DNA of 64,000 nucleotides from Candidatus Binatia bacterium (GTDB taxonomy: Bacteria > Desulfobacterota > Binatia > DP-6): NCBI GenBank assembly GCA_041496545.1, contig JBGQET010000004.1:19293-83292 (forward strand). Reading direction: 5' to 3'. The notes below the pieces were generated by a model, which saw only the letters and a list, made by a program, of their open reading frames with translations, searched no databases and was not told the origin of the DNA. Numbering within the stretch: position 1 is the stretch's first letter; each line of letters opens with the position of its first letter. The translations under genes and the position numbers were made by a program. Positions 3,706-22,623 of this stretch are shown here, piece after piece.

Positions 3706-6342
3706 CTACGCGGCTTGGCATGCCAGCTCCTCTCGGCTCGGTTGACCGGTGACCGTGGACGTCTCGCACTCTTCCTCGTGATGACCCCGCGCCGAGAACG
3801 GGACCGGGAGACGAATCGTGAAGGTCGTCCCCTCGGGGCCGGACGCGGTGCAGGCCAGCGTGCCGCCGAACTCGCCGCTCACGATGTCGCGTGCGATCGA
3901 GAGGCCGAGGCCGGTACCCTTGCCTGGGGGCTTCGTGGTGTAGAACTCGTCGAAGATGCGGGGCCGCGTCTGCTCGGGGATCCCCGTGCCGCGGTCGGAC
4001 ACGCGAACCACGACGTCGGCCGCCTCGGGCTCCACCTGCACCGCGATCCGGCAGCGCTCCGGGGGGAGGCCCTCGCAGGCGTCGATCGCGTTGTTGATGA
4101 GGTTCGCGAGCACCTGCGCGAGCCGGCCGCTGTCGCCGTACAGCTCGGGAATGGCGTGGGCGATCTGCAGGTCGAGCGCGCCGCCCGCGAGGCGAAGGCG
4201 ATGCATCAGCAACGGCTTGAGATCGCGCTCGATCAAGCGCCCGACGTCAAAGGCGGCGAGCGGGCCGCCGTCGGCGCGCCCGTGGGATTTCACGCTCCGC
4301 ACGTAGTCCACGGCCTTGCGGGTCCAATCGCCGACGTCGTTCACGAGCTTGGCGAGGAACACGAAGTGCTCGCGCCGTTCGGCGTCCGGCGTGGTCGGAT
4401 CGGCGGCCATGGCCTCGCATTCGCCGACGATCTCGCTGGCCGTCTTCAGGTGGTTCAGGGCGGCGCCGAGCGGCGTGTTCATCTCGTGGGCGATCTGGGC
4501 GGCGAGGCGACCGAAGGCGGCCATCTTCTGGGCGGCGATCAGTTGCTCCTGGCTGGACTGGAGCGTGGCGTACGCCGCCTCGAGGTGCCGCGTGCGCTCG
4601 TCGACTCGCCGCTCCAGGTCCGTGTTCAGGAGGTGAAGGTCGTGGAACGTGCGCGCGTTCTGGAGCGAGAGCGCCGCGTGGTTCGCGAAGGTGCGGAGGA
4701 ACGAGACGTCAGTGGCGGTGAAGAACGTCCCGGCGGCCTTCCGCCCGCAGACGAGGAAGCCGATCAGGTCCCCCTGGCAGGTGAGCGGGACGATGAGCTC
4801 CGCCCCGAGGTTGTCGAAGTCCTCGAGCGCGGCGGCGTGCTCCACCGCCGTGTCCAGCAGCGGTGTGTCGCGGATGAGGACGTGCGGTAGACGGGCGAGG
4901 ACGCGAAGCAGCGGCCGGCCTGCCGGCAGGCGGTCGAGCGTGGTCGCGGCGTTGCCGGGTCGGCGGGCCGTCTCGACGAAGTCCTGCTCGGTGCGCAGGA
5001 ACACGGCCACCCGCTCGAGGCCGAGGGCGGACTCCGGAAAGGCGAGCGTCAGGTCGAGGATGTCCTGCAGCTTCAGCGTCCCGCCGAGGGCGGTGCTCGC
5101 CGCCGCGAGAACCTCCTGCGCGTCGTAGGTGCGGCGCCTGAAGACGACGTCGACGAGGCGCTGCACCCAATCGCGAAGGCTCGGCATCACGAGCAGGACC
5201 ACGATCGTGAACACGAGCGAGAACGCGGGCGACTTTCCGAAGGAGACCTGAAGGAAGTGACTGGTGAACGCCGCCACGAGGAGATAAGCAGCCGTCACCA
5301 GCCCGGTCAGCACCGCGTAGTAGAGACCACGCTGGACCAGCGCATCGATCTCGAACAGGTCGCGCTTGTGCACGGCGTAGGCGATCGAGAGCGGGAAGAC
5401 GAACGCCGTGTACGCCATCACGTTGGCCGGGACCGGCGTTCCCTCCAGCACCGACAGCACGGCGAGCGGAAGCGGGATGCCGAGGCCGGCGATCAGCCCG
5501 AAGACGACGAAACGCACGCGCTGGCGCACGAGCTCCGAGCTGGAGCGTAGGTAGCCGCTCAGCGCCGACCAGACGAGGAAGAACCCGGTGGCCGAGAGGG
5601 CGACCGCGGCGAGCGCGTGCACGTGCGGGTACAGCGTGGGCGACATCAGCCAGGCCTGGTACACGACGGCCAGCACGACGGCCGGCAGGTAGCAGACCAC
5701 GAGGGCGCGGCGAACGCGGATGCGACGCACCGGGAAGATCAGCGCGAGGTGGAGCACCGTGGCGGGAAGCAGCGATTCCGCCAGCGCGTGAAGCCGGAAG
5801 AACAAGTACGGACCGTAGAGGTCCATCGCCGTGAGGGCGTAGGCGCTGGCGCAGAGCCCGAGCGCGAGCAGCGCGCCTCGGGTGGCGGCTTCGGCGGTCG
5901 CGACGCAGATGCCGAGCCCGATTGCCGCGAACAGCAGCCCGTTCAGGAGATAAGCGCCGAAGAGCAGAAAGCCGTCCGACCAGGTGAAGGAGCGCGACTC
6001 CAGCACGCGGCCGAAGGTGACGCCGTCGCGGGAGAACGTGTAGTTGAGAGGCGTCCCCGGGGGTCGGGCGGCGACGCGCGCGTAGACCTGCTCCGCGCTC
6101 GTCACGTGAACGCCTTCGACTTCGACGACGGTGGCCTGGAAGACTTCGGGGGCCCGCACGACCGACCACCACGGCAGGCTGACCGACGCGACGACGCGGT
6201 TCTCGAGGAGCATGAACCCGGGGAAGGTCCGGTGTATCCAGGCGAGCGCCGACAGCGAGGTGACCGCCGCGACCGCCAGGGTGGCGACCAGGACGAGGCC
6301 CACGCCGCGAACCCGTGCGGTAAGGGTCTGTGTCCGGCTCAC
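3706..6342 (-). CDS. multi-TM sensor histidine kinase (periplasmic domain, about 8 TM helices, GAF-like region, HisKA, HATPase_c)
   Basis: HisKA motif AAQIAHEMNTPLGA and HATPase_c motifs (NLINNAIDA, DRGTGIP, GTGLGLSI). Likely GTG start at 6342 overlapping the TGA stop of the upstream gene (GTGA); the longer listed N-terminal extension has low GC3. Paralog of the partial kinase at 1..1003. Confidence 0.8.
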   Translation of the reverse strand: MSRTQTLTARVRGVGLVLVATLAVAAVTSLSALAWIHRTFPGFMLLENRVVASVSLPWWSVVRAPEVFQATVVEVEGVHVTSAEQVYARVAARPPGTPLNYTFSRDGVTFGRVLESRSFTWSDGFLLFGAYLLNGLLFAAIGLGICVATAEAATRGALLALGLCASAYALTAMDLYGPYLFFRLHALAESLLPATVLHLALIFPVRRIRVRRALVVCYLPAVVLAVVYQAWLMSPTLYPHVHALAAVALSATGFFLVWSALSGYLRSSSELVRQRVRFVVFGLIAGLGIPLPLAVLSVLEGTPVPANVMAYTAFVFPLSIAYAVHKRDLFEIDALVQRGLYYAVLTGLVTAAYLLVAAFTSHFLQVSFGKSPAFSLVFTIVVLLVMPSLRDWVQRLVDVVFRRRTYDAQEVLAAASTALGGTLKLQDILDLTLAFPESALGLERVAVFLRTEQDFVETARRPGNAATTLDRLPAGRPLLRVLARLPHVLIRDTPLLDTAVEHAAALEDFDNLGAELIVPLTCQGDLIGFLVCGRKAAGTFFTATDVSFLRTFANHAALSLQNARTFHDLHLLNTDLERRVDERTRHLEAAYATLQSSQEQLIAAQKMAAFGRLAAQIAHEMNTPLGAALNHLKTASEIVGECEAMAADPTTPDAERREHFVFLAKLVNDVGDWTRKAVDYVRSVKSHGRADGGPLAAFDVGRLIERDLKPLLMHRLRLAGGALDLQIAHAIPELYGDSGRLAQVLANLINNAIDACEGLPPERCRIAVQVEPEAADVVVRVSDRGTGIPEQTRPRIFDEFYTTKPPGKGTGLGLSIARDIVSGEFGGTLACTASGPEGTTFTIRLPVPFSARGHHEEECETSTVTGQPSREELACQAA

Positions 6343-7478
6343 GCCGCCACCTCCCGGGGCGCCGCCACGGCCGGCTGCGACGCCATCGGCAGCCACACCG
6401 TGAACGTGCTGCCCTCGCCCAGGCGGCTCTCGACCTTGATGTCCCCCCGCATCATGCGGGCGAAGCGGCGCGCGAGTGCGAGACCGAGGCCGATGCCGCG
6501 CGTCTGGCCGTCGTGCGGGCGGAGCTGGTGGAAGATGTCGAAGATCGCGTCGTGGTCCTTCTGATCGATGCCGGGGCCGGTGTCGCTGACGCGGATGGCG
6601 ACGCGGCCGTCTTCCGCTCGTGCCGAGAGGCGCACCTCGCCCTCGGACGTGAACTTCTTCGCGTTGTCGAGGAGATTCTGGATGATGATGCGGAGCTTTG
6701 CGGCCTCGGCGAAGATCGTCGGCAGGTCGTCCGGGATGTCGGCGACGAATCGGATCGGCTTCAAGCGCGCGAGCAGCGTGAACCACTCGCCGAGCTCGCG
6801 GAGGAACGGCGTGAGCGGGACCGGCTCCGGCTGGATCTCCATGGCGCCGGCCTCGAGCTTCGACAGGTTGAGGAACTCCTCGATCAAGTCGAGGAGGTAA
6901 GCGGCGTTGCTCAGGACCTTGTCGAAGATCGGCTGGACGTCCGGCGGGCAGACGCCGAACTGACCCTCGCGGAGGAGCGCGACGTACCCCACGATCACGT
7001 TGAGCGGGGTGCGGAACTCGTGCGACACGTTCGCCAGGAGCTCGGTCTTCAGCCGCTCGGCGATGTGGAGCTGCGCGAGCTGGTCGTACGCCTTGAGCGC
7101 GGCGTCGACCCAGAGGAGCAGCCGGTCCGGGCCGTCGCTCTTGTCGTGGTAGCCCTGGATGGCGAGGCGCCCCAGCATCTCACGCGGGGGCTTCTCGCCC
7201 GCGTAGCCGGTTTGGAGCACGATCTGGATGAGCTGGTCGCGGTCGCGGACGCCGGCGATCAGCTCCTCGCCGTTCATGACCGGCATGAAGTAGTCGACGA
7301 GGAGCACCTGCGCCGACTCGCGCTCGAGGACGCTGAGCGCCTCGGTACCCCTCTCGGCCGTGAGCACGCGGTGGCCCTCGCGCTCGAGCAGCACCCGGAC
7401 CGAGGTGAGCGTTTCCGCCTGGTCGTCGACGACCATGATCGTCCGGCCGCTCGCCATCACGTTGCGTCGCGTGCTCAT
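6339..7478 (-). CDS. hybrid response regulator-histidine kinase (REC-HisKA-HATPase_c)
   Basis: REC motifs (IMVVDDQ, LLVDYFMPVMNG), HisKA (SHEFRTPLN), HATPase_c (DTGPGI, GIGLGLAL). Start placed at ATG 7478 (MSTRRNVMASGRTIMVVDD); 7457 is an alternative. Stop overlaps the start of the 3706..6342 kinase. Confidence 0.75.
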   Translation of the reverse strand: MSTRRNVMASGRTIMVVDDQAETLTSVRVLLEREGHRVLTAERGTEALSVLERESAQVLLVDYFMPVMNGEELIAGVRDRDQLIQIVLQTGYAGEKPPREMLGRLAIQGYHDKSDGPDRLLLWVDAALKAYDQLAQLHIAERLKTELLANVSHEFRTPLNVIVGYVALLREGQFGVCPPDVQPIFDKVLSNAAYLLDLIEEFLNLSKLEAGAMEIQPEPVPLTPFLRELGEWFTLLARLKPIRFVADIPDDLPTIFAEAAKLRIIIQNLLDNAKKFTSEGEVRLSARAEDGRVAIRVSDTGPGIDQKDHDAIFDIFHQLRPHDGQTRGIGLGLALARRFARMMRGDIKVESRLGEGSTFTVWLPMASQPAVAAPREVAA

Positions 7479-7952: not shown

Positions 7953-9236
7953 TCACCCGGACCCGCCGGCCGCGCGCTGCTTCTCGGCGACGGCGTCGCG
8001 GCCGTTCCCGATGATGGCGCGGAGCCCGCGGTCGTAGGTGAGGTAGTTCCAGGCCCAGTTGACGAGCACCACGAGCCGGTTGCGAAAGCCGATCAGCATC
8101 ACGAGGTGGACGACCAGCCACACCCACCACGCGAGGCGTCCCCGGAGGTGGACGCGGCCGATGAATCCCACGGCGCGACTCCGCCCGATCGTCGCCAGCG
8201 AGCCCTTGTCGCGATAGACGAAGGGCTCGAGCGGCTCGCCGCGCATGGCGTGCAGGACGTTGGCGGCGGCGTGCTCGCCCTGCTGGATGGCCACCTGGGC
8301 CACCTGCGGGAGCCGCTCCGTGCCCTCGACCAGCGCCACGTCCCCGACCGCGAAGACGGCCGGCTGGCCGACGACGGCGAGCGTGGGCTCGACCCGGAGC
8401 CGCCCGCTGCGCCCGGTGGGGAGACCGAGGCGGGCGGCGACGGCCGCGGCGCGGATGCCGGCCGCCCAGATGACCGTCTCGCTCGCGATGCGCTCGCCGC
8501 CGGTGAGCTCGACACCGTGCGACCCGATGCGCGCGACCTTGGTCCCCATGCGCAGCTCCACCCCGAATCGCGCGAGATCCTCGCGGGCGCGTGCCCGGAG
8601 GTCGGGCGGGTAGGGCGGCAGCACGTCGGGCCCCGCCTCGACGACGACGATCCGGAGTGTCTCGGCGCCGATGCTCCGGTAGTCGCGCGGGACGACGTGG
8701 CGGCGGAACTCCGCGAGCGCCCCGGCCATCTCGACGCCCGTCGCGCCGGCGCCGACGATGACGAAGGTGAGGAGCGTGGCGCGGGCGGCCGGGTCCTCGG
8801 TGGTCGTCGCGTGCTCGAGAACGCGGAGGACGTGGTTGCGCAGGGCGCGCGCGTCCTCGAGGTCGTAGAGCCGGAAGGCGTCCGCCGCCCCGGGGATGCC
8901 GAAGTCCTCCGCGGCGCCCCCGACGGCGACGATCAGGTAGTCGTACGGGACGCGGTCGCCCTCGGCCGTGTCGAGGACGCGCGCCCGCGGGTCGCCGCCG
9001 ACGACGCGCGCGAGCCGGAAGTCGACCGTCGGATGGTGGTGGAGGATGCTCCGCGCCGGGTAGGCGATGTCCTGCGGCTCGAGGCCCGCCGTCGCGACCT
9101 GATACAGCAGCGGCAGGAAGCAGTGGTAGTTGTGGGCGTCCACCCAGAGCGTCCGGACGCCCGCGCGCCCAAGCCGTCGCACGGCGTGGAGGCCGGCGAA
9201 GCCGGCGCCGAGGACCACGACTCGTGTGTCGTCCAT
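7953..9236 (-). CDS. ndh: type II NADH:quinone oxidoreductase (NDH-2), FAD-dependent pyridine nucleotide-disulfide oxidoreductase
   Basis: Two Rossmann GxGxxG motifs (VVVLGAGFAGL; FVIVGAGATGVE), size of 427 aa and overall NDH-2 collinearity. Confidence 0.85.
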   Translation of the reverse strand: MDDTRVVVLGAGFAGLHAVRRLGRAGVRTLWVDAHNYHCFLPLLYQVATAGLEPQDIAYPARSILHHHPTVDFRLARVVGGDPRARVLDTAEGDRVPYDYLIVAVGGAAEDFGIPGAADAFRLYDLEDARALRNHVLRVLEHATTTEDPAARATLLTFVIVGAGATGVEMAGALAEFRRHVVPRDYRSIGAETLRIVVVEAGPDVLPPYPPDLRARAREDLARFGVELRMGTKVARIGSHGVELTGGERIASETVIWAAGIRAAAVAARLGLPTGRSGRLRVEPTLAVVGQPAVFAVGDVALVEGTERLPQVAQVAIQQGEHAAANVLHAMRGEPLEPFVYRDKGSLATIGRSRAVGFIGRVHLRGRLAWWVWLVVHLVMLIGFRNRLVVLVNWAWNYLTYDRGLRAIIGNGRDAVAEKQRAAGGSG

Positions 9237-10680: not shown

Positions 10681-11591
10681 CTCGAGCCCTCCCGTCGCGT
10701 AGTCAGCGCCGCGCGCAGTCCAGACCGAAGTTGCGTGCCCTCGTGGTCCGAGGACCAGCAGATCGGTTGCGGCGCGGGGCCGCACGCGGTGGCGAAAGGG
10801 TTCGGGCGGTCGGCGAAGAGGCGCGTGGCGGCGGGGTCGAGCCGGGCGGTGCACGACGAGCCGGACGCGGGCGGCACCAGGAAGATGAAGTCGATGCGCT
10901 CGTTCTCGTTCGTCTCCGGCGACTCCATCTGCGAGAGGTCCTCGTCGGCGCGTCCCGAGGTGCAGCCCTCGCCGCTCGAGACGTCGCACTCCGCGTTGCC
11001 GGCGGCGAGGTAGGTGTCGAGCCAGCCGCGGCGGGTGAACTGGCCGTAGACCAGGCTGCCGGGGGACTGGTTGAAGTCGCCGGTCGCGACGGCGGGCGTC
11101 GGCACGTTGTGCTTGGCGGCCACCAGCGCCGCCATCTGCACGCCCTGACAGTCGCGGACCGTCCGCGCGCCGGCCGCGACGCACGCGGGCGGGCAGTCGC
11201 CGGCGCAGGGAGCCTCGGCGCCGTCGCTGCTCGAGGCGAGGTGGGTCGAGAAGACGTCCACGGGGCCGAGCGGGTGGTCGAGGCGGGCCCAGAACACGGT
11301 GCGGTAGTTCTTGTAGAGCTTGGTCAGCTCGACCACGCCCGCGGGCCAGCGCGTCAGGATCGTCTCGAGCGGCACGTCGGCGAAGCACTGCCCGGGCGCG
11401 GCGCCGCCCGAGACGACGAGACCGCCCGCGCCCGGCGGCGCGGCCGGTGGCACGATCGCGGCGTCGCGCAGCGTGATGCGGGCGTCGCGGTCTCGCCCGC
11501 CGTGCAGCACGAGCCCGGCGCCCGCGACCGGCACGTCCGCGGCCCAGGCGTGGAGCGCGAGCACGACGGCGAGCGCGACGGCGCGGAGCAC
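10626..11591 (-). CDS. secreted endonuclease/exonuclease/phosphatase (EEP) family protein
   Basis: GTG start at 11591 gives signal peptide MLRAVALAVVLALHAWA. EEP motifs include TGDFN and C-terminal WSSDHEG. The ORF reads through and its last 55 nt overlap tRNA-Cys on the opposite strand. Confidence 0.7.
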   Translation of the reverse strand: MLRAVALAVVLALHAWAADVPVAGAGLVLHGGRDRDARITLRDAAIVPPAAPPGAGGLVVSGGAAPGQCFADVPLETILTRWPAGVVELTKLYKNYRTVFWARLDHPLGPVDVFSTHLASSSDGAEAPCAGDCPPACVAAGARTVRDCQGVQMAALVAAKHNVPTPAVATGDFNQSPGSLVYGQFTRRGWLDTYLAAGNAECDVSSGEGCTSGRADEDLSQMESPETNENERIDFIFLVPPASGSSCTARLDPAATRLFADRPNPFATACGPAPQPICWSSDHEGTQLRSGLRAALTTRREGSRGGDRIRTGEWRFCRPLP

Positions 11592-11599
11592 GGGCGGGC

Positions 11600-11926
11600 C
11601 TACGTGAGCGCGTTGACCTTGGCGGCCATGATGAAGTCGTTCTCGTGCAGGCCCTTGATCTTGTGCGTCCAGAAGAGGACGCGGCAGTAGCCCCAGCCGA
11701 AGGTGAGGTCGGGGTGGTGGTCCTCCGCTTCGGCGAGGTCGGCGACCTTGCGGACGAAGGTGAAGGCGGTCGCGAAGTCGGGGAACCGGAAGGCGCGCTC
11801 GATCTGCGTACCGGCGTCGTTCAGCGTCCAGCCGGGTGTCTCCTGGAGTAGACGCTCGGCCTCGGCGCGCCCGAAGGGTGGGACGCCCCCCCGGCAGGGG
11901 ACGCACTGCTTCGCGGTGAGGCCCAT
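11600..11926 (-). CDS. phhB: pterin-4-alpha-carbinolamine dehydratase (PCD/DCoH)
   Basis: 108 aa from ATG 11926 with the characteristic AEAEDHHPDL motif and typical size. The 104 upstream codons in the listed ORF are Ser/Thr junk with low GC3. Confidence 0.8.
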   Translation of the reverse strand: MGLTAKQCVPCRGGVPPFGRAEAERLLQETPGWTLNDAGTQIERAFRFPDFATAFTFVRKVADLAEAEDHHPDLTFGWGYCRVLFWTHKIKGLHENDFIMAAKVNALT

Positions 11927-12038
11927 GGGGCGGCATCCTCGTCCATCCGCGCACCGGGCGCCATGGGAGGGCCGCCGTTGCCACCGCCGCTTCAAGTCAC
12001 GGCCGGGGCCGGTCGATAGACTCGTGAGTGACCCGAGG
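11927..12038. promoter_or_regulatory. divergent intergenic region between phhB and the che-like operon (putative promoters)
   Basis: 112-bp non-coding gap between two divergently oriented starts. No specific motif identified. Confidence 0.25.
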
Positions 12039-12455
12039 ATGGCGGGCTCAGGGTGTAATTCTGCCGGGCAGCGGTGGACGCTCCGCGTCCTCGTGGTCGA
12101 GGACGATCCGACGGATCGGCTGCTCATCGCGCGCGGGTTCCGCGATCCGGCGCCGCTTCCCGGACCGGTCGAACTCGAAGCCGTCGGCGACGTCGACGCC
12201 GCGCTCGCGGTGCTGGCGGGGCGGAGCTTCGCGGTCATCCTGAGCGACTACTCACTGCCCGGCTGGACGGGGCTCGACCTGCTACGCCGGCTCCGCGAGC
12301 GCGACGACCGGACGCCGCTGGTCCTGATGAGCGGGGGCGCGGACGAGGCGCTCGCCGCGACGGCGAAGCAGCTCGGGGCGGTGGACTGCATCGTCAAACG
12401 CGCCGGCTTCGAGCGGGCGCTCCCGGCTCTCGTCGGTCGGGTGCTCGCGGCATGA
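12039..12455 (+). CDS. single-domain response regulator (CheY-like REC)
   Basis: RVLVVEDDPTDRLL...ILSDYSLPGWTG...LVLMSGG receiver motifs. Stop overlaps the next start (ATGA). Confidence 0.7.
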   Translation: MAGSGCNSAGQRWTLRVLVVEDDPTDRLLIARGFRDPAPLPGPVELEAVGDVDAALAVLAGRSFAVILSDYSLPGWTGLDLLRRLRERDDRTPLVLMSGGADEALAATAKQLGAVDCIVKRAGFERALPALVGRVLAA

Positions 12456-13297
12456 CGGCGCTCGACCCCGATACCTTGCCCGTGCTCCTCGTCGAGGAGA
12501 GCCCCACCGACCGTGCGCTGATCGCGCGCGCCCTGCGCCCGCGTCCGACGGCCGTGGCGGACGCCGAGCGCGTGCTCGACGCCGTCCGGCGGCAGTCGTT
12601 CGCGGCCGTGCTGATCGCCCACGCATTGCCCGGGCGCAGCGGGCTCGACGTGCTGCGCGAGCTGCGCTCCGCCGGGGAGACGACGCCGATCGTGCTGCTC
12701 GCCGACGCCGACGACGACGGGGTGGCGGCGGACGCGCTCCGCGCGGGTGCGGACGCCTGCGTCGTGAAGCAGCCCGGCTTCGAGCGGAGCGTGTCGCGCG
12801 CCGTGACCCAGGCGGCGCGCCAGCGCCTCCAGGTCGCCGCGGCGCCGCGCGCCGAGCCCGAGATGCTCCGCGTCCTCGTCTTCGAGATCGGGGAGCAGCG
12901 CTACGGGCTGCGGGCGGCCGACGTCTTGGAGATCGTCCCGGCGGTGACCGTGACGCCCGTCCCGGACGCGCCCGCACACGTCGAGGGCATGCTGAACCTG
13001 CGCGGGCGCGCGGTGCCGGTCGTCGACGTGCGGGCGAGCCTCGGCCTGCCGCGGCGGGCGGCCGCGCACACCGATCACCTGATCGTCGTCGGGGTGGAGG
13101 AGGGCGCCGCGGCCCTGCGCGTGGACCGCGCCACGGAGCTCGTGAGCGTGAACGCCGTCCGCCCCGACGCCGGACGGCCGGCGGGGCTGATCGAGCTCCG
13201 CGGCGAGCTGCTCTTCGTCCACGAAACGCGGCGCTTTCTCAGCCGCGAGGACCGCGCCGCGTTGGTCGCGCGCCGGGCGCCGCCGGAGGCGCGATGA
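12452..13297 (+). CDS. REC-CheW fusion protein (receiver domain followed by CheW-like domain)
   Basis: REC motifs (PVLLVEESPTDR, LIAHALPGRSG, IVLLAD), then a CheW-like domain (LRVLVFEIGEQRYGLRAADVLEIV...MLNLRGRAVPVVDV). ATGA overlap at both ends. Confidence 0.8.
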   Translation: MTALDPDTLPVLLVEESPTDRALIARALRPRPTAVADAERVLDAVRRQSFAAVLIAHALPGRSGLDVLRELRSAGETTPIVLLADADDDGVAADALRAGADACVVKQPGFERSVSRAVTQAARQRLQVAAAPRAEPEMLRVLVFEIGEQRYGLRAADVLEIVPAVTVTPVPDAPAHVEGMLNLRGRAVPVVDVRASLGLPRRAAAHTDHLIVVGVEEGAAALRVDRATELVSVNAVRPDAGRPAGLIELRGELLFVHETRRFLSREDRAALVARRAPPEAR

Positions 13298-14679
13298 CGG
13301 AGGCCGCCTGGAGTGCCCCGGCGTACGCGCTCATCGCCCGTCGTGTGCAGGCGCGGACGGGTCTCAATTTCACACCGACCTTTCGCGAGCGCGCCGAGGC
13401 GGGCATCGATCGCGCCATGGCCCGCGCCGGGTGTGGCGACCTGGCGAGCTACGTCGACCTGCTCGAGAGCCGCGGCGCCGTGCTCGACGACCTCGTCGTG
13501 GAGCTCGCCGTCGGCGAGACCTACTTCTTCCGCGAGCCGGGTCACTTCGAGGTCGTCCGCCGCTTGATCGTGCCGGAGGTCTGCGAGCGCGGCGGTCCCG
13601 CGCACGTGCTGCGCGCCTGGAGCGCCGGGTGCGCCTCGGGCGAGGAGGCGTACTCCCTGGCCATCGTCCTCGACGAGCTGGGGCACGACGCCAGCGCGCG
13701 GGTGCTGGGGACCGACATCTCCCGCCTCGCGCTCGCCAAGGCCCGGGCCGGGACCTACGGCGCGTGGTCGCTGCGCGGCGACGACGGCCTGCACGCGCGT
13801 CCGTACCTCGCCCGCGCCGGCGACCGGTACGTGGTCGCCGACGCGCTCCGGCGCCGGGTCTCCTTCGAGTACGTGAATCTCGTGCTGGACACGTATCCCT
13901 CGTACGCCAGCGGGCTCTGGGCCATGGACCTCGTCTTCTGCCGCAACGTGCTCATCTACTTCGACGCCGAGACGGTGGCGCGGGTGGCGCGCCGGCTGTT
14001 CGACACCCTGGCGCCGGGCGGCTGGCTCGTGACGGCGTCCTCCGACCCGTCGCTCGTGAACGCGGCGCCCTTCGAAGCGGTGACCACCGAAGCCGGCGTC
14101 GTCTACCGGCGCGGCCCGGCACCCGCGACGGCAGCGGCGACGCCTCCGGAGCGTCCGGCGCGAGCGTCCCTCGCCCCCGCCCGCCCGCCGCGACGACCCC
14201 GCGCCGCGGTCGCGCCTGCGGCCCGAAAGCGCGCTCGCGGTGGCCCCGCGCGGTCGGCGTCTTCCGACGCCGAGGCGAGCGCGCTCCAGGTCCGCGCGCT
14301 CGCCAACCTCGACTCCGCGGCGGCGGAGCGAGCCTGTGCGGCCGCCGCCGTCCGCCATCCGCTCTCGGCCGAGCTGCACTACCTGCGCGCCTTGCTGCTC
14401 TCCGAGCTCGGTCGCGACGCGGAAGCCGTGCAGGCGACGCGCTGCGTGCTCTACCTGGACGCCTCGCTCGCGGCCGCGCATCTGACGCTCGGCACGGTGC
14501 TCCGTCGCCTCGGCGATCGGGAGGGCGCGCGCCGCGCCTACGCCACGGCCCGGGAGCTGAGTGCCGCCCGGCCGCCCGACGAGGTCGTGCCCTTGACGGA
14601 TGGCGAGCGTGCCGGGCGGCTGCTCGAGGCCGCGGAGATGCAGCTCGCGCTGCTCGACGCTCCGGGGAGCCGGCCGTGA
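13294..14679 (+). CDS. cheR: chemotaxis protein methyltransferase CheR with C-terminal TPR-like extension
   Basis: CheR all-alpha N-domain plus SAM-MTase core ([42 protein letters not shown]), followed by an Ala-rich TPR-like C-terminus. Confidence 0.85.
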
Positions 14680-15317
14680 GCGCGCGCGGCAGGGTCCTGC
14701 GCTGGGACGAAGCGCGCGAGCGGCTCCGTCGCGCCGCGGAGACGACGGCGGCGGGCGCGGCGCTGCCGCCCGAACGTGCACGCGCGCTGATGGACGAGCG
14801 GGCCCGCCGGCTGGCGGCGCCGGCGGCGGCGACACCCGACTCGGCGCGGCGCCTCGAGATGCTGTGCCTCTCGCTCGGCGACGAACGCTACGGCGTGGAA
14901 ACGCGACACGTGCGCGAGGTGGTGCGTGCCGGCGATCTGACTCCCGTTCCGTTCACGCCCGACTTCCTGCTGGGAGTGACGAATCTCCGCGGCGAGCTGC
15001 TCGCCGTGGTGGATCTCGGGAGCTTGTTCGGCCTCCCGCCGCGCGCCGTGACGGCGTCTTCACGCGTTGTCGTGCTCGGCGCGGAGCGCGCGGAGATCGG
15101 CGCGCTTGCCGACGTCCTCGACGACGTGACCAGCATCGAGACCGCCGAGCTGCTCGACGCGCCTTCGCTGCGCGACGGGATGGCGGCACGGTTCGTGCGC
15201 GGCGTGACGGCCGAGGGCGTGGTGCTGATCGACGCGGCGGGCCTGCTCGCAGAGGACGGTCTGTTCGATCCGGAGTACAACGCGGGCGGGGAGCCCGCAG
15301 GACGGGGAGTGTCATGA
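14676..15317 (+). CDS. cheW: CheW-like coupling protein
   Basis: GTG start overlapping the cheR stop (GTGA). CheW domain motif [24 protein letters not shown]...[17 protein letters not shown]. Confidence 0.75.
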
Positions 15318-16957
15318 CGATCGGCAGGAAGATGTCGGCTGGATTCGGGGTCGCGCTGGCGATGCTGCTCGGAATCGGCACGGTGTCGTACCGCAACACC
15401 GCGAAGCTGGTCGACACAAGCACCTGGGTGACCCACACGCACACGGTGCTGGAGCACCTGACGATGCTGCTCTCGTTGATGAAGGACGAGACGCTCGCCT
15501 CGCGGGGTTACGTGATCACCGGCAAGGATGAGTTCCTCGATCCGATCCGCGGGAACAACGAGTCGGTCCAAAGAATCCGCGACGAGCTGCGCACGCTCAC
15601 CGCGGACAACGTGCGTCAACAGCGGCGGCTGGAGGAGCTGGAGGCGGCGATGCAATCGCTCGTCGCCTGGCACAAGGAAACGATCGAGACCCGGCGTAGC
15701 GCGGGCTTCGACGCTGCCATGCAGCGTGTATCGGGCGGAGGGGGGCAGAGGCTGACGGAAGAGATCGATCGTATCGTCAAGGCGATGAGAGAGGAAGAGG
15801 ACCGCCTGCTCGTCGAGCGAGATACCGAGGCCCAGGCTGCGGCCACCCAGACGTTCCGGATCATCATCCTCGGCACCTTCGCCGCCGCGGTCCTGGTGTC
15901 GGCGATCGGTATCTTCATCGTCCGTGGGATCGGCGGCGCGTTGCGCGAGCTGATGGCGGGCGCCGCCAAGATCGGCGAGGGCGCGTTCGAGCATCGCATC
16001 GCGGTGGGAACCAGGGACGAGATGGGCGAGCTCGGCGAGGCCTTCAACCGCATGTCGGAGCGCCTGCAGAGCACGACTGTGAGCGCCGAGACCGAGCGCC
16101 TGGCGCGGGGGCGGGTCGAGACCCTGCTCGGGAGCATGCGCGAGGCGGCCACGCGGCTGTCCGCGGCGGCCGCGGAGATCCTCGCCAGCACGACCCAGCA
16201 GGCCTCGGGCGCGGAGCGGCAGGCGGCGGCGACGGCGGAGACGGGCGCCGTGGTGGACGAGGTGACGCGCACCGCGGCGCAGGCGTCCGAGCAGGCGCGC
16301 AGCGTCGGCGAGGCCGTGCAGCGCACGGTGGAGATCGGGGCCGCCGGGCGCGAGGCCGTCGAGGAGTCGATGCGCGCGATGGAGACGGTGCGGGAGCAGG
16401 TCGAGTCCACGGCGGAGACGATCGTCACCCTGGCCGAGCAGGCACAGTCGATCGGCGAGATCATCGCGGCGGTGAACGAGCTGGCGGAGCAGACCAACCT
16501 GCTGGCGCTGAACGCCGCGATCGAAGCGGCGCGGGCGGGCGAGCACGGCAAGGGCTTCGCGGTGGTCGCGGGCGAGGTGAAGACGCTCGCCGAGCAGTCG
16601 AAGAAGGCGACGGCGCAGGTGCGGCAGATCCTGGGCGAGATCCAGAAGGCCACCAACGCGGCCGTCCTCTCGACGGAGGCGGTGACGAAGGGCGTCGCGA
16701 CGGCGAGCAGCATCGGCAGCCAGGCGGGGTCCACGATCACGACGCTGGCCGACACGCTCGGCGCGGCGGCGCGCGTCGCGAGCCAGATCGTCGCCGCCGC
16801 CGAGCAGCAGTCGACGGGCATGACGCAGATCCACGACGCCATGAAGAACATCGACCAGGTGGCGCGGCAGACGATGGCGGCCACCCGGCAGACGGAGCAG
16901 GCGGCGCAGAACCTGAACACGATCGGCACGCAGCTCGCGGAGCTGAGCGTCCGCTGA
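15314..16957 (+). CDS. methyl-accepting chemotaxis protein with CHASE3 sensor, HAMP and MCP signalling domain
   Basis: N-terminal TM plus CHASE3 ([12 protein letters not shown]...ASRGYVITG), second TM, HAMP, then the MCP highly conserved domain ([31 protein letters not shown]). ATGA overlap with the cheW stop. Confidence 0.85.
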
Positions 16958-16968
16958 GCGTCGGACCC

Positions 16969-19179
16969 ATGGAGCAGGCCGCCGCCGACGCCCGTTTGCT
17001 GGCCACGTTCCTCGAGGAGCTCGAGGATCGGGTGCGGGCGCTCAACGAGGACGTCCTCGCGCTCGAGCGAGACGCCGCCCCGGACGCGCCGGCGGGGCCC
17101 GCGCCGGAGCGACTCGGCGCGCTGCTCCGCACCGCACACAGCTTGAAGGGCGCCGCGCGCGCGGTGAACGTGCGGCCGGTCGAGCGCGTCTCGCACCATC
17201 TCGAGGAGCTCCTGATCGCCGTCCAGCAGGGTCGCCTCGCGGTCGGCCCGGAGCTGTGCTCGCTCCTCCTCGGGGCGGCCGACGCGATCGAGGACGCGGG
17301 CGCCCGGCTCCGAGCCGGGCAGGATCTCCGCGGCGCGCCGATCGTGGACGTGCTGGCACGGCTCGAAGCCGGCGCCGGCGCCGGCGCGTCGGGCGAGGCG
17401 GGCCCGGCGAGCGCGCCGCACGCCGTGGAGGCGACGGGGGCCGACGGCGCCGTGCGCGTCGCCGCGGAGCGGCTCGACGCGCTGCTCGCCCACACGGGCG
17501 AGCTGGTGATCGCCCGCCGGAGGGTGGAGTCACGGCGGGTGGAGGTGGCCGCGCTGCGGGAGCTGGCCGCTCGCGCGCGCCTCGAGTGGCGCGGCACGGA
17601 AAAGGCCGTGCGGGCGCTCGCGGAGCACCCGGAAAGAAGCGCGGCGGCGCTGCGACGGGGGCTCCGGCTCACTGGACGGACGGGCGGCCTGCTGCGCCGC
17701 CTCGAAGCCGAGGTGGAGGGCCTGGCCGGCGCGATGATCGGCGACGGGCGACTCCTGGCGCAGACCACGGACCCGCTCGACGACGACGTCCGTCGCATCC
17801 GCATGGTGCGCTTCGCGGAGGCGTGCGGCGGGCTCGAGCGCACGGTCCGCGACGTGGCGCGCGCGACGGGAAAGGAGATCACCGTCGTGATCGAGGGCGG
17901 CGACGTCGAGCTCGACCGCTCCGTCGTCGAGGGCGTCAAGGATCCGTTGCGTCACCTGGTGCGGAACGCCGCCGACCACGGCCTCGAGCCGCCGGCGGAG
18001 CGGCGGGCGGGCGGGAAGAACAGCCAGGGACGCATCACCGTCGGGGCGGCGCTGCGGGGCGCCCAGGTCGAGATCACGGTGCGCGACGACGGTCGTGGAC
18101 TCGACCTTGCGGGGCTCCGGGAGCGCGCGCGCGCCGCGGGGCTCGCGGCGCCCGAGGAAGCGCACGAAGCGGCGCGGCTCGTCTTCGAGCCCGGGGTCTC
18201 GACCGCGCGCGCGGTCACGGACGTCTCGGGACGCGGCGTGGGGCTCGACGTCGTCAAGACCGGCATCGAAGCGCTGCACGGCACGGTCGGCGTGGCCGTC
18301 GAGCCCGGCGGCTCCGGCGTGTGCTTCATCCTCACCGTCCCGCTGACCCTGACCTCGCTGCCCGCGCTGGTGGTGACCGTCGGGCAGCGGACGTTTGCGC
18401 TGGCGAGCGCGAACGTGGCCGCGCTCCTGCGCTTCGCGCCCGCCGACCTCCGCTCGGTCGGGGGCCGTCCCATGCTGCCCCACGGCGGACGGCTCGTGCC
18501 CGTCCTGCGACTCGCGGACAGCGTCCAGCTCGTCCCCGAAGCCCCGTCCGCCGAGCGCGCCAAGGTGGTGGCGGCGCTCGTGACCGCGGGCGAGTCGCGC
18601 GTCGCCTTCGTGGTGGACGAGCTGGTGGCGGCCCACGACGTGGTGGTGAAGAGCCTTGGGCGGCGCCTCCGGCACCTCGCGGGCGTGTCGGGCGCGACGA
18701 TCCTGCCCTCGGGCGGCGTGGCGCTCGTGCTCAACGCCGCGCACCTCGTCCGCCGCGCGCTGGGTGGCACGCCCGGCACGCCCTTCGGGCCGTCGTCGGC
18801 GGGCACGGTTGCGCCGCGCAAGCGCGTCCTCCTCGCGGACGATTCGGTCACGACCCGCGCCCTGGAGCGGAGCCTGCTCGAGGCCGCGGGCTACGAGGTG
18901 GTGCTCGCGGCGGACGGGAGGGCGGCGTGGCGGCTGCTCGAGGACAACGTTCCGGATCTCGTGGTCAGCGACGTCGACATGCCGGGGATGGACGGCTTCG
19001 CCCTGACGGAGGCGATCCGCAGCTCGCCCCGGCTGCGCGACCTGCCGGTCGTCCTCGTCACCGGGCGGGAGAGCCCGGAGGACAAGGCCCGCGGGCTGCG
19101 TGCCGGGGCGAGCGCCTACGTGGTGAAGAGCGCCTTCGATCAGAAGACGTTCCTGGACCTGCTGGCGAGCCTCGCGTGA
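16969..19179 (+). CDS. cheA: CheA histidine kinase with C-terminal receiver domain (CheA-REC hybrid)
   Basis: HPt (LRTAHSLKGAARAV), dimerisation, HATPase_c (DDGRGLD, GRGVGLD), CheW-like regulatory domain, C-terminal REC (RVLLADDSVTTR...SDVDMPGMDG...VVLVTGR). Confidence 0.85.
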   Translation: MEQAAADARLLATFLEELEDRVRALNEDVLALERDAAPDAPAGPAPERLGALLRTAHSLKGAARAVNVRPVERVSHHLEELLIAVQQGRLAVGPELCSLLLGAADAIEDAGARLRAGQDLRGAPIVDVLARLEAGAGAGASGEAGPASAPHAVEATGADGAVRVAAERLDALLAHTGELVIARRRVESRRVEVAALRELAARARLEWRGTEKAVRALAEHPERSAAALRRGLRLTGRTGGLLRRLEAEVEGLAGAMIGDGRLLAQTTDPLDDDVRRIRMVRFAEACGGLERTVRDVARATGKEITVVIEGGDVELDRSVVEGVKDPLRHLVRNAADHGLEPPAERRAGGKNSQGRITVGAALRGAQVEITVRDDGRGLDLAGLRERARAAGLAAPEEAHEAARLVFEPGVSTARAVTDVSGRGVGLDVVKTGIEALHGTVGVAVEPGGSGVCFILTVPLTLTSLPALVVTVGQRTFALASANVAALLRFAPADLRSVGGRPMLPHGGRLVPVLRLADSVQLVPEAPSAERAKVVAALVTAGESRVAFVVDELVAAHDVVVKSLGRRLRHLAGVSGATILPSGGVALVLNAAHLVRRALGGTPGTPFGPSSAGTVAPRKRVLLADDSVTTRALERSLLEAAGYEVVLAADGRAAWRLLEDNVPDLVVSDVDMPGMDGFALTEAIRSSPRLRDLPVVLVTGRESPEDKARGLRAGASAYVVKSAFDQKTFLDLLASLA

Positions 19180-19189
19180 GGGCCGTGGG

Positions 19190-20218
19190 ATGATCCGGAT
19201 CCTGGTCGTGGACGACTCACCCACCGCCCGCCAGAGCCTGGTGCAGGTCCTGCAGGCAGACCCGGAGGTGCAGATCGTCGGCGAGGCAAGCGACGGGCTC
19301 GAGGCCGTCGAGATGACGCGTCGCCTGCGACCGGATCTCGTGACCATGGACGTCCAGATGCCGCGCATGGACGGCTACGAGGCGACGAAGGAGATCATGA
19401 TCGAGTCGCCGACGCCGGTCGTGGTGGTGACCGCCGGCCTGGGCGACCCGGAGGTGTCCGCGTCGATGCGGGCGCTGCGTGCCGGCGCGGTCTGCGTGCT
19501 CCAGAAGCCTCCCGGTCCGGGTGCGCCGGGGCACGCGCGCGAGGCGCAGCAGATCCTGGAGACGGTGAAGGCGATGTCGCAGGTGCGCGTGGTGCACCGC
19601 ATCCGCCAGCCGGCACCGCCCGTGGCCGCGCCGCGCGGTCCGAAGCCGGTCCGGGTGGTCGCGATCGCGGGGTCCACGGGAGGCCCGGGCGTCCTGCACC
19701 AGATCCTCTCGGCGCTGCCCGGGGACTTCCCGGTGCCGATCCTCGTCGTGCAGCACATGACGGTGGGCTTCACGCCAGGCCTGGCCTCGCACCTGGGCGG
19801 CGGCTCGCCGCTGCGCGTGAAGGTGGCGGAGGCGGGCGACACGCTCGCGCCCCACACCGTGTACCTCGCCCCGGACGATCGTCACCTGATGGTGTCCGGA
19901 GCGGGCAGCGTCACGCTCTCGGACGCGCCCGCCGTCGGCGGCTTCCGGCCCTCGGCGAGCGTGCTCTTCGAGTCGGTGGCGAAGGCGTTCGGGTCGGGCA
20001 CCGTGGCCGTCGTGCTGAGCGGCATGGGCGAGGACGGCGTGGCGGGGTTGCGGGCGGTGAAGCAGGCGGGCGGCCGCGTCGTGGTCCAGGACGAGGAGAC
20101 GTCGGTCGTCTTCGGCATGCCCGGCGCGGCCATCACCGCGGGCCTCGCCGAGCGGGGAATCCCGGCCGGTGCGATCGCGGGGACGTTGCTGACGCTCGCC
20201 TCGGGAGCGGCGGCATGA
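19190..20218 (+). CDS. cheB: chemotaxis response regulator protein-glutamate methylesterase CheB (REC plus CheB_methylest)
   Basis: REC (RILVVDDSPTAR, VTMDVQMPRMDG) and methylesterase catalytic domain (VVAIAGSTGGPGVL, ILVVQHM, VVLSGMGEDG). Confidence 0.85.
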   Translation: MIRILVVDDSPTARQSLVQVLQADPEVQIVGEASDGLEAVEMTRRLRPDLVTMDVQMPRMDGYEATKEIMIESPTPVVVVTAGLGDPEVSASMRALRAGAVCVLQKPPGPGAPGHAREAQQILETVKAMSQVRVVHRIRQPAPPVAAPRGPKPVRVVAIAGSTGGPGVLHQILSALPGDFPVPILVVQHMTVGFTPGLASHLGGGSPLRVKVAEAGDTLAPHTVYLAPDDRHLMVSGAGSVTLSDAPAVGGFRPSASVLFESVAKAFGSGTVAVVLSGMGEDGVAGLRAVKQAGGRVVVQDEETSVVFGMPGAAITAGLAERGIPAGAIAGTLLTLASGAAA

Positions 20219-21504
20219 CGCGCGTGCTGATCGTCGAGGACAGCCGGACGCAGGCGACTCGGCTCGAGACCATCCTCGGCGACGCCGGCTTCCAGGTGGA
20301 CGTCGCGCGGGACGGCCTCGAAGGCTACGAGCGCTGCCGGGCGAGCCGCTTCGACGTCGTGTTGAGCGACGTCGTCATGCCGGGGCTCTCGGGCTTCGAG
20401 CTCTGCCGCCGCATCAAGGCGGACCCGGTCACGCGCGACGTCCCGGTGATCCTGCTCACCATGCTGAGCGATCCGGGCAACATCATGGACGCGCTGGTGA
20501 GCGGCGCGGCGAACTTCATCAACAAGCCGTACGACCCCGAGTATCTGGTCGCGCGCGTGAACCAGGTGGTCGCGAACCGGCGGCTGCGTGCCGAGCGTCC
20601 CGCGGGCGCGGGGACGGAGGTCTTCTTCCTCGGCAAGCGGCTCGCGGTCGATTGCGAGGAGGAGCAGATCCTCGACCTCCTCGTCTCGAGCCTGGAGGAC
20701 ACCATCCGGGTGAACCAGAAGCTCCAGGCGAGCCAGGCGGCGCTCGAAGAGGCCGACCGGCAGATCCGCGCCCAGAACAAGGAGCTGGAGGCCTTCGTCT
20801 ACACGGCGTCCCACGACCTGAAGGCACCGCTGCGCGGGGTGGAGGGCATGAGCCGGATACTGGTCGAGGACTACTCCCAATCCCTCGACGACGAGGGCCG
20901 GCGCTACCTCGACCTCGTCCGCGACTCCGCGGCGCGCATGCACCAGTTGATCGACGACCTGCTCGCGTTCGCCCGCGTCGGCCGCCAGCAGACCCCGGTG
21001 GTGAGCGTCGACGTGCGGGCGGCCCTGAGCGACGTGCTGGCGACGCTCCGCTTCTCGCTCGACGAGGTGGGCGCGACGGTCGCCCTGCCCGCGGACGCGC
21101 CGACGGCTTCGGGCCACCCGGTCCTCGTGAAGGAGCTGTTCACGAACCTGATCGGCAACGCGCTCAAGTACCGCCGTCCAGCGACCGCGCCGCGCATCGT
21201 GGTGACGTGGCGTCCCGTCGAGGCGGGAGGGCTCGAGGTGGCGGTGGCGGACGACGGCATCGGGGTGCCGGCCGAGCATCGCGAGCGGGTGTTCGAGCTC
21301 TTCAAGCGGCTGCACGGACAGGACGAGTACCCCGGCACGGGCGTCGGCCTCGCGATCTGCAAGAGGATCGTCGAGGAGCACGGCGGCGAGATCGCTCTCG
21401 AGGAGACACCGGGCGGAGGATGCACGGTGCGCTTCACGCTGCGGGCGGCGGCCGTGGCGGCGGGCGCACGCCGGCGCGAGCCCGAATCGTCGTCGGCGCA
21501 CTGA
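20215..21504 (+). CDS. hybrid response regulator-histidine kinase (REC-HisKA-HATPase_c), terminal gene of the che-like operon
   Basis: ATGA overlap with cheB. REC (RVLIVEDSRTQ, VLSDVVMPGLSG), HisKA (ASHDLKAPLRGV), HATPase_c (NLIGNALKY, DDGIGV, GTGVGLAI). Confidence 0.8.
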   Translation: MTRVLIVEDSRTQATRLETILGDAGFQVDVARDGLEGYERCRASRFDVVLSDVVMPGLSGFELCRRIKADPVTRDVPVILLTMLSDPGNIMDALVSGAANFINKPYDPEYLVARVNQVVANRRLRAERPAGAGTEVFFLGKRLAVDCEEEQILDLLVSSLEDTIRVNQKLQASQAALEEADRQIRAQNKELEAFVYTASHDLKAPLRGVEGMSRILVEDYSQSLDDEGRRYLDLVRDSAARMHQLIDDLLAFARVGRQQTPVVSVDVRAALSDVLATLRFSLDEVGATVALPADAPTASGHPVLVKELFTNLIGNALKYRRPATAPRIVVTWRPVEAGGLEVAVADDGIGVPAEHRERVFELFKRLHGQDEYPGTGVGLAICKRIVEEHGGEIALEETPGGGCTVRFTLRAAAVAAGARRREPESSSAH

Positions 21505-21526
21505 CCTCGACGGCGAGTGGCGCTAC

Positions 21527-21943
21527 TCAGGAGCCGCTTTTCGGCGACTGTCCCGGCGTGCAGGGCATGCCCGGCGCCTTGATGACCATCTGGCGGTTGC
21601 CGAACTGGTCGAATCCCGTCTGGTCGGGCACCTTGCCCTTCGGACACTTGAGCTTGTAGCAGAACATCGGCGCGTCGAATGGCTGGCCGCCCGGGGCGCC
21701 GGGCGGGTTGCCCGCGGTGATGACCTTGTCGACGGGGCTGCAGATGAGCTTCGCCGGCACCTTGACCACGCAGCCGGATTCCTGCGGGAAGGTCCCGCCG
21801 CTCGGCGTCAGGTTGACGACGTACGCCGCCTTGGGCGCCGGGTCCTTCACCGTGTAGCACTTGAGGTGGTCGGCGGCGTGCGCGGGAGCCGCCAACAGCC
21901 CGGCGGCGAGGAGGGTGAGCAACGTCGTTGTCGTTCGCGTCAT
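21527..21943 (-). CDS. small secreted six-cysteine protein (paralog 1)
   Basis: Signal peptide MTRTTTTLLTLLAAGLLAAPAHA, then ADHLKCYTVKD...ESGCVVKVPAKLICSPV...FCYKLKCPKG...MPCTPG. High GC3. Tandem paralog immediately upstream. Confidence 0.6.
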   Translation of the reverse strand: MTRTTTTLLTLLAAGLLAAPAHAADHLKCYTVKDPAPKAAYVVNLTPSGGTFPQESGCVVKVPAKLICSPVDKVITAGNPPGAPGGQPFDAPMFCYKLKCPKGKVPDQTGFDQFGNRQMVIKAPGMPCTPGQSPKSGS

Positions 21944-21952
21944 GGCCGTCAA

Positions 21953-22389
21953 TCAGGTGTTCCCGGCCGGCACGTCGGCCGGGGCGCAGAGGATGGTCGG
22001 CTTCTTCACGGTCACCGTGCGGTCGCCGAACTGGTCCTTCATGCCGATCTGGAAGGTGTCCTGCTTCGGACACTTGATCTTGTAGCAGGCGTACTGGTGG
22101 ACGCGCGGCTGGCCCTGCGGCGCGCCGGGCGGGTTCCCACCCGTGACGATTTTGGAGATCGGATATCAGAGCAACGTGGCGGGCACCTTGACGGTGCAGC
22201 CCGTCTCGTTGGGGAACGCCGCGCTGAAGAGCGGAGTCAGCGTGGCGGTGTACGTCGCCTTCGCCGCGCTGTCCTTCCCCTTGTAGCACTTGAGGTGGTC
22301 GGTGAGGACGCCGGGTCCGGCCGTGGCCGTCCCGCCGAGCACGAGCCCGAGGCCGAGCGCGCAAGAAAGTTTGGAGCCTCGAGCGGCAT
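21953..22389 (-). pseudogene. paralog 2 of the six-cysteine secreted protein, interrupted by an in-frame TGA (22166-22168) at a conserved Cys position; pseudogene or candidate selenoprotein
   Basis: The segments ...DHLKCYKGKD...ETGCTVKVPATLL-TGA-YPISKIVTGGNPPGAPQGQP...CYKIKCPKQ...ILCAPA... align gap-free with paralog 1. The TGA falls exactly on Cys of LIC in paralog 1. No in-frame start codon lies upstream of the signal-like region; the nearest ATG (22387-22389) is in the -1 frame. Confidence 0.4.
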
Positions 22390-22623
22390 GGGGTCGCCTT
22401 CGTGGTAGACCCGCGGCGCGGCGTCGACGCCGATCTCCACCCCGCGCGTGAACACGCACATGCCCGTCGTCGGATCCCAGCCGCACGCCGCGCAGCCCGC
22501 GCGGCAGCGCTTCGGCTGGCGGTTCGGATCGCCCTGGACGCCGTTGGTGTAGTCGCAGCTCCAGCGCAGACCCTCGTCGCGGTTCACGAGCAGGAACGGC
22601 TTCGGGATGTCCTTGACGGGCAT
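22390..22623 (-). CDS. small Cys-rich hypothetical protein segment (78 codons, no in-frame stop before the next coding segment)
   Basis: ATG 22623. Product MPVKDIPKPFLLVNRDEGLRWSCDYTNGVQGDPNRQPKRCRAGCAACGWDPTTGMCVFTRGVEIGVDAAPRVYHEGDP has very high GC3. The frame then loses coding signal while another frame gains it. Confidence 0.4.

Follow-up and report, generated by a model that had tools for sequence, protein, structure and literature searches.

An eight-gene chemosensory operon, probably of the alternative-cellular-function class, that ends in a receiver-histidine kinase in a Candidatus Binatia bacterium

We investigated an operon of chemotaxis-like genes in a Candidatus Binatia bacterium, on a 64,000-nucleotide stretch of contig JBGQET010000004.1 (positions 19,293 to 83,292), hereafter called the window. 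Open reading frames (ORFs) and Pfam searches delimit eight co-directional genes, g1 to g8, on the forward strand between positions 12039 and 21504. The first, g1 (12039-12455), encodes a single-domain receiver (REC) of 138 residues (Pfam E-value 1e-17) and is followed by g2 (12452-13297), a REC-CheW fusion of 281 residues, and by g3 (13294-14679), a CheR of 461 residues in which the CheR_N and CheR domains are extended by TPR repeats (TPR_2, TPR_16 and TPR_1, residues 335-422). A second CheW scaffold of 213 residues with a GTG start (g4, 14676-15317; Pfam E-value 8.5e-28) precedes a chemoreceptor, or methyl-accepting chemotaxis protein (MCP), with CHASE3, HAMP and MCPsignal domains (g5, 15314-16957), a CheA-REC (g6, 16969-19179), a CheB methylesterase of 342 residues with its own receiver (g7, 19190-20218; Pfam and NCBIfam) and a REC-HisKA-HATPase histidine kinase of 429 residues (g8, 20215-21504). 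All the domain architectures that a first-pass annotation, made from the sequence alone, had assigned to the eight genes were recovered, including the histidine kinase as terminal gene. The receivers it had named are likewise present; the one carried by CheB had been overlooked, so that the operon comprises five REC domains.

The genes are tightly packed. At five of the seven junctions (g1/g2, g2/g3, g3/g4, g4/g5 and g7/g8) they overlap by 4 nt, as ATGA or GTGA, which is the number previously given, and the gaps of 11 nt between g5 and g6 and of 10 nt between g6 and g7 fall within the 9-13 nt reported for the MCP, CheA and CheB genes. The G+C content at third codon positions (GC3) is 0.86-0.96 in all eight genes, which is typical for real genes in this window of 71% GC, and the IMG and NCBI gene models, found on several metagenomic contigs, are the same as ours. 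Upstream, a divergent intergenic region of 112 nt (11927-12038) separates g1 from a pterin-4a-carbinolamine dehydratase gene on the reverse strand, according to the gene calls of one such contig (L098) and to the sequence, and is presumed to be the promoter region of the operon; scans of positions 11400-22400 for the sigma-70 consensus and for intrinsic terminators returned no match.

The receptor g5 is organised, from Pfam and hydropathy, as a first transmembrane segment, a periplasmic CHASE3 domain, a second transmembrane segment, a HAMP domain and a 40-heptad signalling domain, the two hydrophobic, transmembrane-like segments lying either side of CHASE3. In comparison with E. coli Tar, a 36-heptad (36H) receptor, g5 and its orthologues present two symmetric 14-residue insertions, and over the conserved signalling domain their alignment with Sinorhizobium meliloti McpS is free of gaps; these alignments place g5 in the 40-heptad (40H) class. 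Pairs of glutamines occur at plausible methylation sites. In g6, Pfam delimits an Hpt domain (9-109), a dimerisation domain (162-194), an HATPase domain (324-460), a CheW domain (466-596) and a C-terminal REC (620-722), and detected no P2 domain. The P1 domain carries His57 in an HSLKG motif. Aligned with E. coli CheY, the C-terminal receiver of g6 has its Asp intact, and the receivers of g1, CheA, CheB and g8 all keep the acidic pair, the acceptor Asp, the Thr/Ser and the Lys. The g7 product scores 328 bits against PRK00742 (cutoff 293) and shows, by eye, the motifs GSTGG, VQHM and GEDG at the expected places of the Ser, His and Asp that make up the catalytic triad of CheB. With CheA, CheB and CheR, NCBIfam gave generic family matches only.

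The g8 protein joins a CheY-like receiver with Asp52, through a long helix, to a DHp domain with His200 in an SHDL H-box and to a complete catalytic domain. Across 33 homologues there is no variation at D52, T82, H200, N311 and N315 or at the residues of the N, G1, F and G2 boxes. Its AlphaFold2 model (predicted local distance difference test score, pLDDT, of 85.7) exhibits the REC, then a short beta-hairpin followed by a single unbroken helix, residues 149-223, that runs through His200 into the DHp bundle. The best fold match in the PDB (Foldseek) is the Leptospira REC-histidine kinase LvrB (8vc9), which has the same REC-DHp-CA architecture but only 16-17% sequence identity to g8 and no linkage to a che cluster; as the global superposition is poor (TM-score 0.33-0.38), the two proteins share their domain organisation only. 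In sequence, bacteriophytochrome-type kinases come closest to the kinase module. The receiver is most similar to those of che-linked kinases (38-55%), then to genuine CheYs (67-73 bits), and barely matches g1 and g2; this CheY-like character is consistent with g8 being a substrate of CheA. The family is large: of the 8000 candidates that were scored, 3221 match at E<=1e-20. Its nearest named relatives come from "Deltaproteobacteria bacterium" and Polyangiaceae metagenome-assembled genomes (MAGs).

Genome contigs were scanned with the g8 alignment. The scan was dominated by generic histidine-kinase motifs, and its figures refer to the matches listed: among the 80 loci listed most are unrelated REC-kinases, and che clusters are found in L006, L007 and L009 only. 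In these three, from Draconibacterium (L006) and Gemmatimonadaceae (L007 and L009), the order is CheR-CheW-MCP-CheA-CheB-REC-HK (HK, histidine kinase), with a plain CheW before CheR in L006 and L007 and no CheW found upstream of CheR in L009. Closer relatives, at loci L085, L086 and L109, carry [REC*-]CheW, CheR-TPR, CheW, CHASE3-MCP, CheA-REC, CheB and REC-HK in the same order as the window, with a terminal kinase 57-59% identical to g8; in a Polyangiaceae MAG (L087) the kinase gene is divergent from the che cluster. The module ended by a related REC-kinase thus recurs in Gemmatimonadota and Bacteroidota, as well as in deltaproteobacterial MAGs, and, since relatives share it, the operon of the window consists of a standard core of the alternative cellular function (ACF) type joined to one of the standard types of output. 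Outside the che module, no synteny was found between the window and its relatives.

A second REC-HisKA-HATPase kinase, HK2, accompanies four of the related operons. Its gene is located directly upstream of the operon and on the forward strand in L097 (8733-9989) and L109 (1244-2512), and on the reverse strand, convergent and downstream of the operon, in L086 (11308-12657) and L110 (11306-12679). The HK2 orthologues are 60-63% identical to each other. The upstream position that HK2 holds in L097 and L109 is occupied by g1 in the window.

The receivers of g1 and g2 form a group of their own. The g1 receiver is 45% identical to that of g2 and 37-38% identical to those of HK2, and it scores 36 bits against E. 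coli CheY, compared with 68 bits for the receiver of g8. From these mutual identities, g1, the g2 receiver and the HK2 receivers constitute one receiver family, set apart from the receivers of g6, g7 and g8, which are CheY-like. The active site of g1 is intact, with equivalents of the E/D pair, D57, S87 and K109 when aligned to E. coli CheY. On this sequence evidence g1 is classed not as a CheY-like protein but as a lineage-specific paralogue of the g2 receiver in which the Asp was kept. The metagenome scan yielded no close relative of g1, and no counterpart is present in the orthologous clusters L085, L086, L097 and L109. That g1 could be a truncated HK2 orthologue was considered and ruled out, its 37-38% identity to the HK2 receivers being set against the 60-63% found among the HK2 orthologues themselves.

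The first-pass annotation had recognised the REC-CheW fusion of g2, and we correct it in one respect: its REC is a pseudo-receiver, with Ala at the position of CheY D57 and Ala at that of T87. In the family the acceptor Asp is replaced by Ala or Gly in all 15 members retrieved, and despite this loss the pseudo-receiver is well conserved in the family alignment. Both the REC and the CheW domains are folded in the AlphaFold2 model of g2 (pLDDT 85.7). The family is small. A word-based search of 5.8 billion proteins returned 11 clusters at 90% identity, and an exhaustive HMMER search of 1.84 billion 50%-identity clusters returned about five full-length representatives, past which the matches are multi-CheW proteins; the nearest relatives outside the family are plain CheWs. 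CheV also unites a CheW domain with a receiver, but in the order CheW-REC, which is reversed in g2, and with a REC that can be phosphorylated; lacking the acceptor Asp and with the domain order inverted, g2 cannot act as a phosphorylatable CheV. A full-text literature search by fusion names met no description of a receiver-first CheW fusion. According to passages of the Bourret-lab survey, about 94% of CheW-like domains fall in 16 architectures found in CheA, CheW or CheV proteins, and these passages, which do not extend to the architecture figure, do not name a receiver-first CheW among them.

Only in two features, the conserved pseudo-receiver-CheW and its live paralogue g1, does the operon go beyond the textbook. 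A rather unlikely idea is that g2 is a distinct, previously uncharacterised array scaffold, whose pseudo-receiver would dock g8 or HK2, or g1, onto the receptor-CheA complex independently of phosphorylation. If true, this docking would physically wire a two-component kinase into the chemosensory array. The small family is a modest lead on scaffold variants that specialise chemosensory arrays.

Two apparently rearranged relatives of g2 were met. In L110, positions 8380-8910 join in frame the initial 83 residues of the pseudo-receiver-CheW (93% identical to L086) to the last ~90 residues of an MCP. It looks like a deletion derivative, in which the CheW, CheR, MCP and CheA genes are gone and CheB, the REC-kinase and HK2 are kept, and it could also be an assembly artefact. 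In the 271-residue protein P0169, the N-terminal half is a pseudo-receiver 60% identical to g2 and the C-terminal half resembles, by eye, an HK2-type ATPase, as in a recombinant or a chimeric assembly.

For the class of the operon we used the ACF criteria of Wuichet & Zhulin 2010 and MiST, taken second-hand; class-specific Che hidden Markov models (HMMs) are absent from Pfam and NCBIfam (PMC6943060). Fusions of CheR to TPR repeats are reported to occur mostly in ACF clusters; where a cluster has such a CheR, HisKA and HATPase domains are borne by about 40% of its kind's response regulators, and some ACF clusters include single-domain regulators (PMC3447774). Passages of a preprint (bioRxiv 10.1101/2022.05.07.491037) link particular CheA architectures to the ACF and F3 classes. 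The che cluster of S. meliloti pSymA is of the ACF class, and its McpS is a 40H receptor (PMC8429497). The window operon presents a CheR-TPR, a CheA-REC devoid of P2, a multidomain REC-HK regulator within the cluster and a 40H MCP. In tblastn searches the CheA-REC proteins of S. meliloti pSymA are the best plasmid matches of its CheA, being 38-41% identical to it across 93-98% of the query.

A neighbour-joining tree of the CheA core (16 sequences, 336 core columns, split-based bootstrap) separates, with 87% bootstrap, the window-side CheAs from the sampled flagellar ones. On the first side of this split stand the window CheA and its orthologues, the S. meliloti ACF CheA, a CheA-REC encoded on an Azospirillum plasmid, two Wsp CheAs and a ChpA-like protein, and on the other the F7 CheAs of E. 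coli and Ralstonia together with those of Phaeobacter and Methylobacterium. Pfam searches, the Pfam assignments of public gene calls and phmmer searches of all ORFs revealed no flagellar gene and no cheZ, cheD, cheC, cheX or cheV gene in the 64-kb window, and outside the operon neither pilus genes nor further che genes were found there (Pfam of predicted genes, phmmer). The first-pass annotation had reported flagellar targets, cheZ and cheD as missing from the operon and had named a flanking flagellar chemotaxis complement as one finding that would speak against an ACF assignment; within the window none is encoded. Its ACF-type interpretation is thus supported by the domain architectures, the 40H receptor, the pSymA relative and the CheA tree, and the assignment is consistent with these features while not proven by them.

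Taken together, the operon is probably a non-motility system of the ACF class, with its genes in a Wsp-like order and with a histidine kinase under receiver control as its output. This reading builds on what was observed directly, namely gene content, catalytic residues, class features and the conservation of the module across phyla; the phosphotransfer steps, their sign and the pairing of g8 with g1 we infer by analogy with Rhodospirillum centenum Che3 and with Wsp. In R. centenum, CheA3 phosphorylates the receiver of CheS3, CheS3 phosphorylates CheY3, and the CheA3 receiver serves as a phosphate sink (PMC3868531). On this model, the CHASE3 receptor g5 and CheA (g6) would be complexed through two scaffolds, CheW (g4) and the pseudo-receiver-CheW (g2), and the receptor would adapt by methylation (CheR-TPR, g3) and demethylation (CheB, g7). 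The state of the receptor would govern CheA autophosphorylation at His57, and CheA~P would pass its phosphoryl group to its own C-terminal REC as phosphate sink, to the REC of CheB and to the CheY-like REC of g8. Phosphorylation of the latter would be relayed through the long helix to the DHp domain, switching the autokinase or phosphatase activity of g8. The kinase would then set the phosphorylation of a downstream receiver, for which g1 is the best local candidate; g1 would in turn act on its target by protein-protein contact.

The first-pass annotation had proposed a relay to transcription or second messengers through a downstream two-component partner. The kinase output is supported, and nothing points to a second-messenger output. 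The annotation had further directed the search for the cognate regulator of the kinase elsewhere in the genome; the partner of g8 need not lie there, because the operon holds a single candidate of its own, g1, in the role that CheY3 has for CheS3.

Several points weigh against this reading. The node joining the window clade to the S. meliloti ACF CheA has 51% support only and the CheA tree includes few references from few classes, which makes it a weak test; in the kinase core, the window CheA is 41% identical to a flagellar-type CheA of Methylobacterium versus 40% to the S. meliloti ACF one. Flagellin, FliD, FliS and FliT are encoded near the L085 orthologue, and MotA and MotB near those of L086 and L110. 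The window has no gene for a response regulator of the DNA-binding or enzymatic kind (Pfam, phmmer sweep), and it lacks the HK2 orthologue that the relatives carry instead of g1. The step from g8 to g1 is the weakest link of the proposed chain, and their pairing cannot be the conserved output, because g1 is missing from all the orthologous clusters examined. The phosphotransfer among these proteins is itself a prediction.

In a first alternative, g1 would be the direct, CheY-type output of CheA, and g8 would act mainly as a competing sink or phosphatase, or feed a separate orphan regulator elsewhere in the genome. The complete receiver active site of g1, its place as first gene of the operon, where cheY often stands, the single-domain regulators of some ACF clusters cited above and the precedent of a CheA-REC phosphate sink (PMC3868531) would all suit such a scheme. 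We nevertheless hold it to be unlikely, since g1 matches E. coli CheY far less well than the g8 receiver does and belongs to the family of the g2 and HK2 receivers, outside the CheY-like group. Moreover, g8 is always present in the orthologous clusters and g1 is absent from them, and R. centenum CheY3 is phosphorylated by CheS3, not by CheA3 (PMC3868531).

The neighbourhoods of some relatives raise a second alternative, in which the cluster would act on motility, flagellar or of another kind, or on how motility genes are expressed, instead of serving an unrelated cellular function. In L085, the orthologous locus closest to the window, the flagellin, fliD, fliS and fliT genes (16480-21302) lie ~5-9 kb downstream of the che module, and upstream and divergent from it there are part of a second cheB (1-129, reverse strand) and a gene for a 359-residue REC protein (332-1411, reverse strand); in L086 and L110, MotA and MotB are encoded ~4 kb downstream. 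In addition, 40H receptors also serve some motility classes, with mcp.40H linked to CheV.I and F6 in passages of the preprint cited above (bioRxiv 10.1101/2022.05.07.491037). The partial second cheB and the flagellar genes of L085 suggest that another, probably flagellar, che system adjoins the module in that genome. A motility role for the window operon seems quite improbable to us, given that the window holds no motility genes and no cheZ, cheC, cheD or cheV, that the relatives share no synteny with it beyond the che module, that the CheA core stands apart from the sampled flagellar CheAs, and that the hallmarks of ACF systems include CheR-TPR, a CheA-REC lacking P2 and a multidomain regulator.

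That g8 is instead an input, feeding the Che module by constitutive autophosphorylation through the CheA receiver or CheB and so biasing adaptation, is very hard to credit even though g8 is a complete kinase with several receivers on hand in the operon, because it has no sensory domain besides its own receiver, whose phosphorylation is therefore its only regulated input. All three alternatives are less well supported than the reading of the operon as an ACF-class system with g8 as its output.

Elsewhere in the window, Pfam identifies further kinases: a GAF-kinase (3706-6303) and a REC-kinase (6339-7478) to the left of the operon and a second GAF-kinase (34302-36086), all three on the reverse strand, and, at the right edge, a fragment of a kinase. 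Immediately downstream of the operon, from ~22000 to ~33300, the GC content falls from ~72% to 63-68% and most ORFs are short or hypothetical and match no Pfam family; on account of both features this region may be an acquired island. A stretch of ~2.5 kb (36100-38600) presents no ORF with the high GC3 typical of the window genes, and at its end lies a tRNA-Leu gene (38599-38683, reverse strand). Three tandem paralogous ORFs of 386-387 residues (43808-47290, forward strand; 40-42% mutual identity, no Pfam match) come immediately after genes for a glycosyltransferase of family 2 (39449-42043) and for an ABC exporter (42052-43824). On the reverse strand, genes for an F420-0:gamma-glutamyl ligase (57970-58728) and a CofH/MqnC-family radical-SAM protein (59590-60831) hint at cofactor F420 biosynthesis in the organism. 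Fatty-acid desaturase genes occur near the operons of L109 and of the window; a link of the type of M. xanthus Che7/Des7 was ruled out, as these desaturases are not orthologous and nothing beyond the che module is syntenic between the two.

Among the known systems, Che3 of R. centenum (PMC3868531), a precedent whose phosphotransfer has been tested, is likewise an ACF cluster of eight genes, among them two for CheW and those for CheR, CheB and one MCP. It likewise pairs a CheA-REC with a second kinase that has its REC at the N terminus and with a single-domain REC; these correspond here to g6, g8 and g1. The two kinases differ in architecture, CheS3 being a REC-REC(degenerate)-PAS-HWE kinase whereas g8 has one REC, a helix, a HisKA-type DHp domain and no PAS, and on these grounds they are not orthologous. 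A degenerate receiver is present in both systems, on CheS3 in R. centenum and on a CheW (g2) in the window. A further difference is that g1 is not conserved in the relatives of the window operon.

With Wsp (WspA-F, WspR) the operon has in common the order CheW-CheR(TPR)-CheW...CheA-REC-CheB-output, with a receiver-fused enzyme encoded by the last gene. The Wsp order is MCP-CheW-CheR-CheW-CheA-CheB-output, and in the window the MCP is displaced to between the second CheW and CheA. The output of Wsp is the REC-GGDEF diguanylate cyclase WspR, whereas that of the window is the HisKA-HATPase kinase g8, and Pfam finds no GGDEF domain in the cluster or in the window. The Wsp CheA core is 31% identical to the window CheA. 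Our searches also met, on a Mesorhizobium ciceri plasmid (L096), a canonical Wsp cluster that ends in a PleD-type regulator.

The ACF cluster of S. meliloti pSymA is the best class-labelled relative of the window CheA. Five of its genes are colinear with the window operon (CheR-CheW-MCP-CheA-REC-CheB), and its receptor McpS is 40H like g5, but it lacks the first CheW, the single-domain REC and the terminal REC-kinase, all of which are present in the window. An ACF-type cluster on an Azospirillum ramasamyi plasmid (L090) has the same core, CheW-CheR-CheW-MCP-CheA-REC-CheB, followed by two-component output genes; these encode a transcription factor of the response-regulator type together with a hybrid kinase, and its first CheW carries no receiver.

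In view of these comparisons, the operon is a real but ordinary example of a known and already surveyed kind, and it raises no new question. ACF systems are common and few have a known function, namely Wsp, M. xanthus Che3 and the Che3 systems of R. centenum and Azospirillum; to this series the operon adds an uncultured, high-GC case of the most frequent and least studied ACF output, the receiver-controlled histidine kinase.

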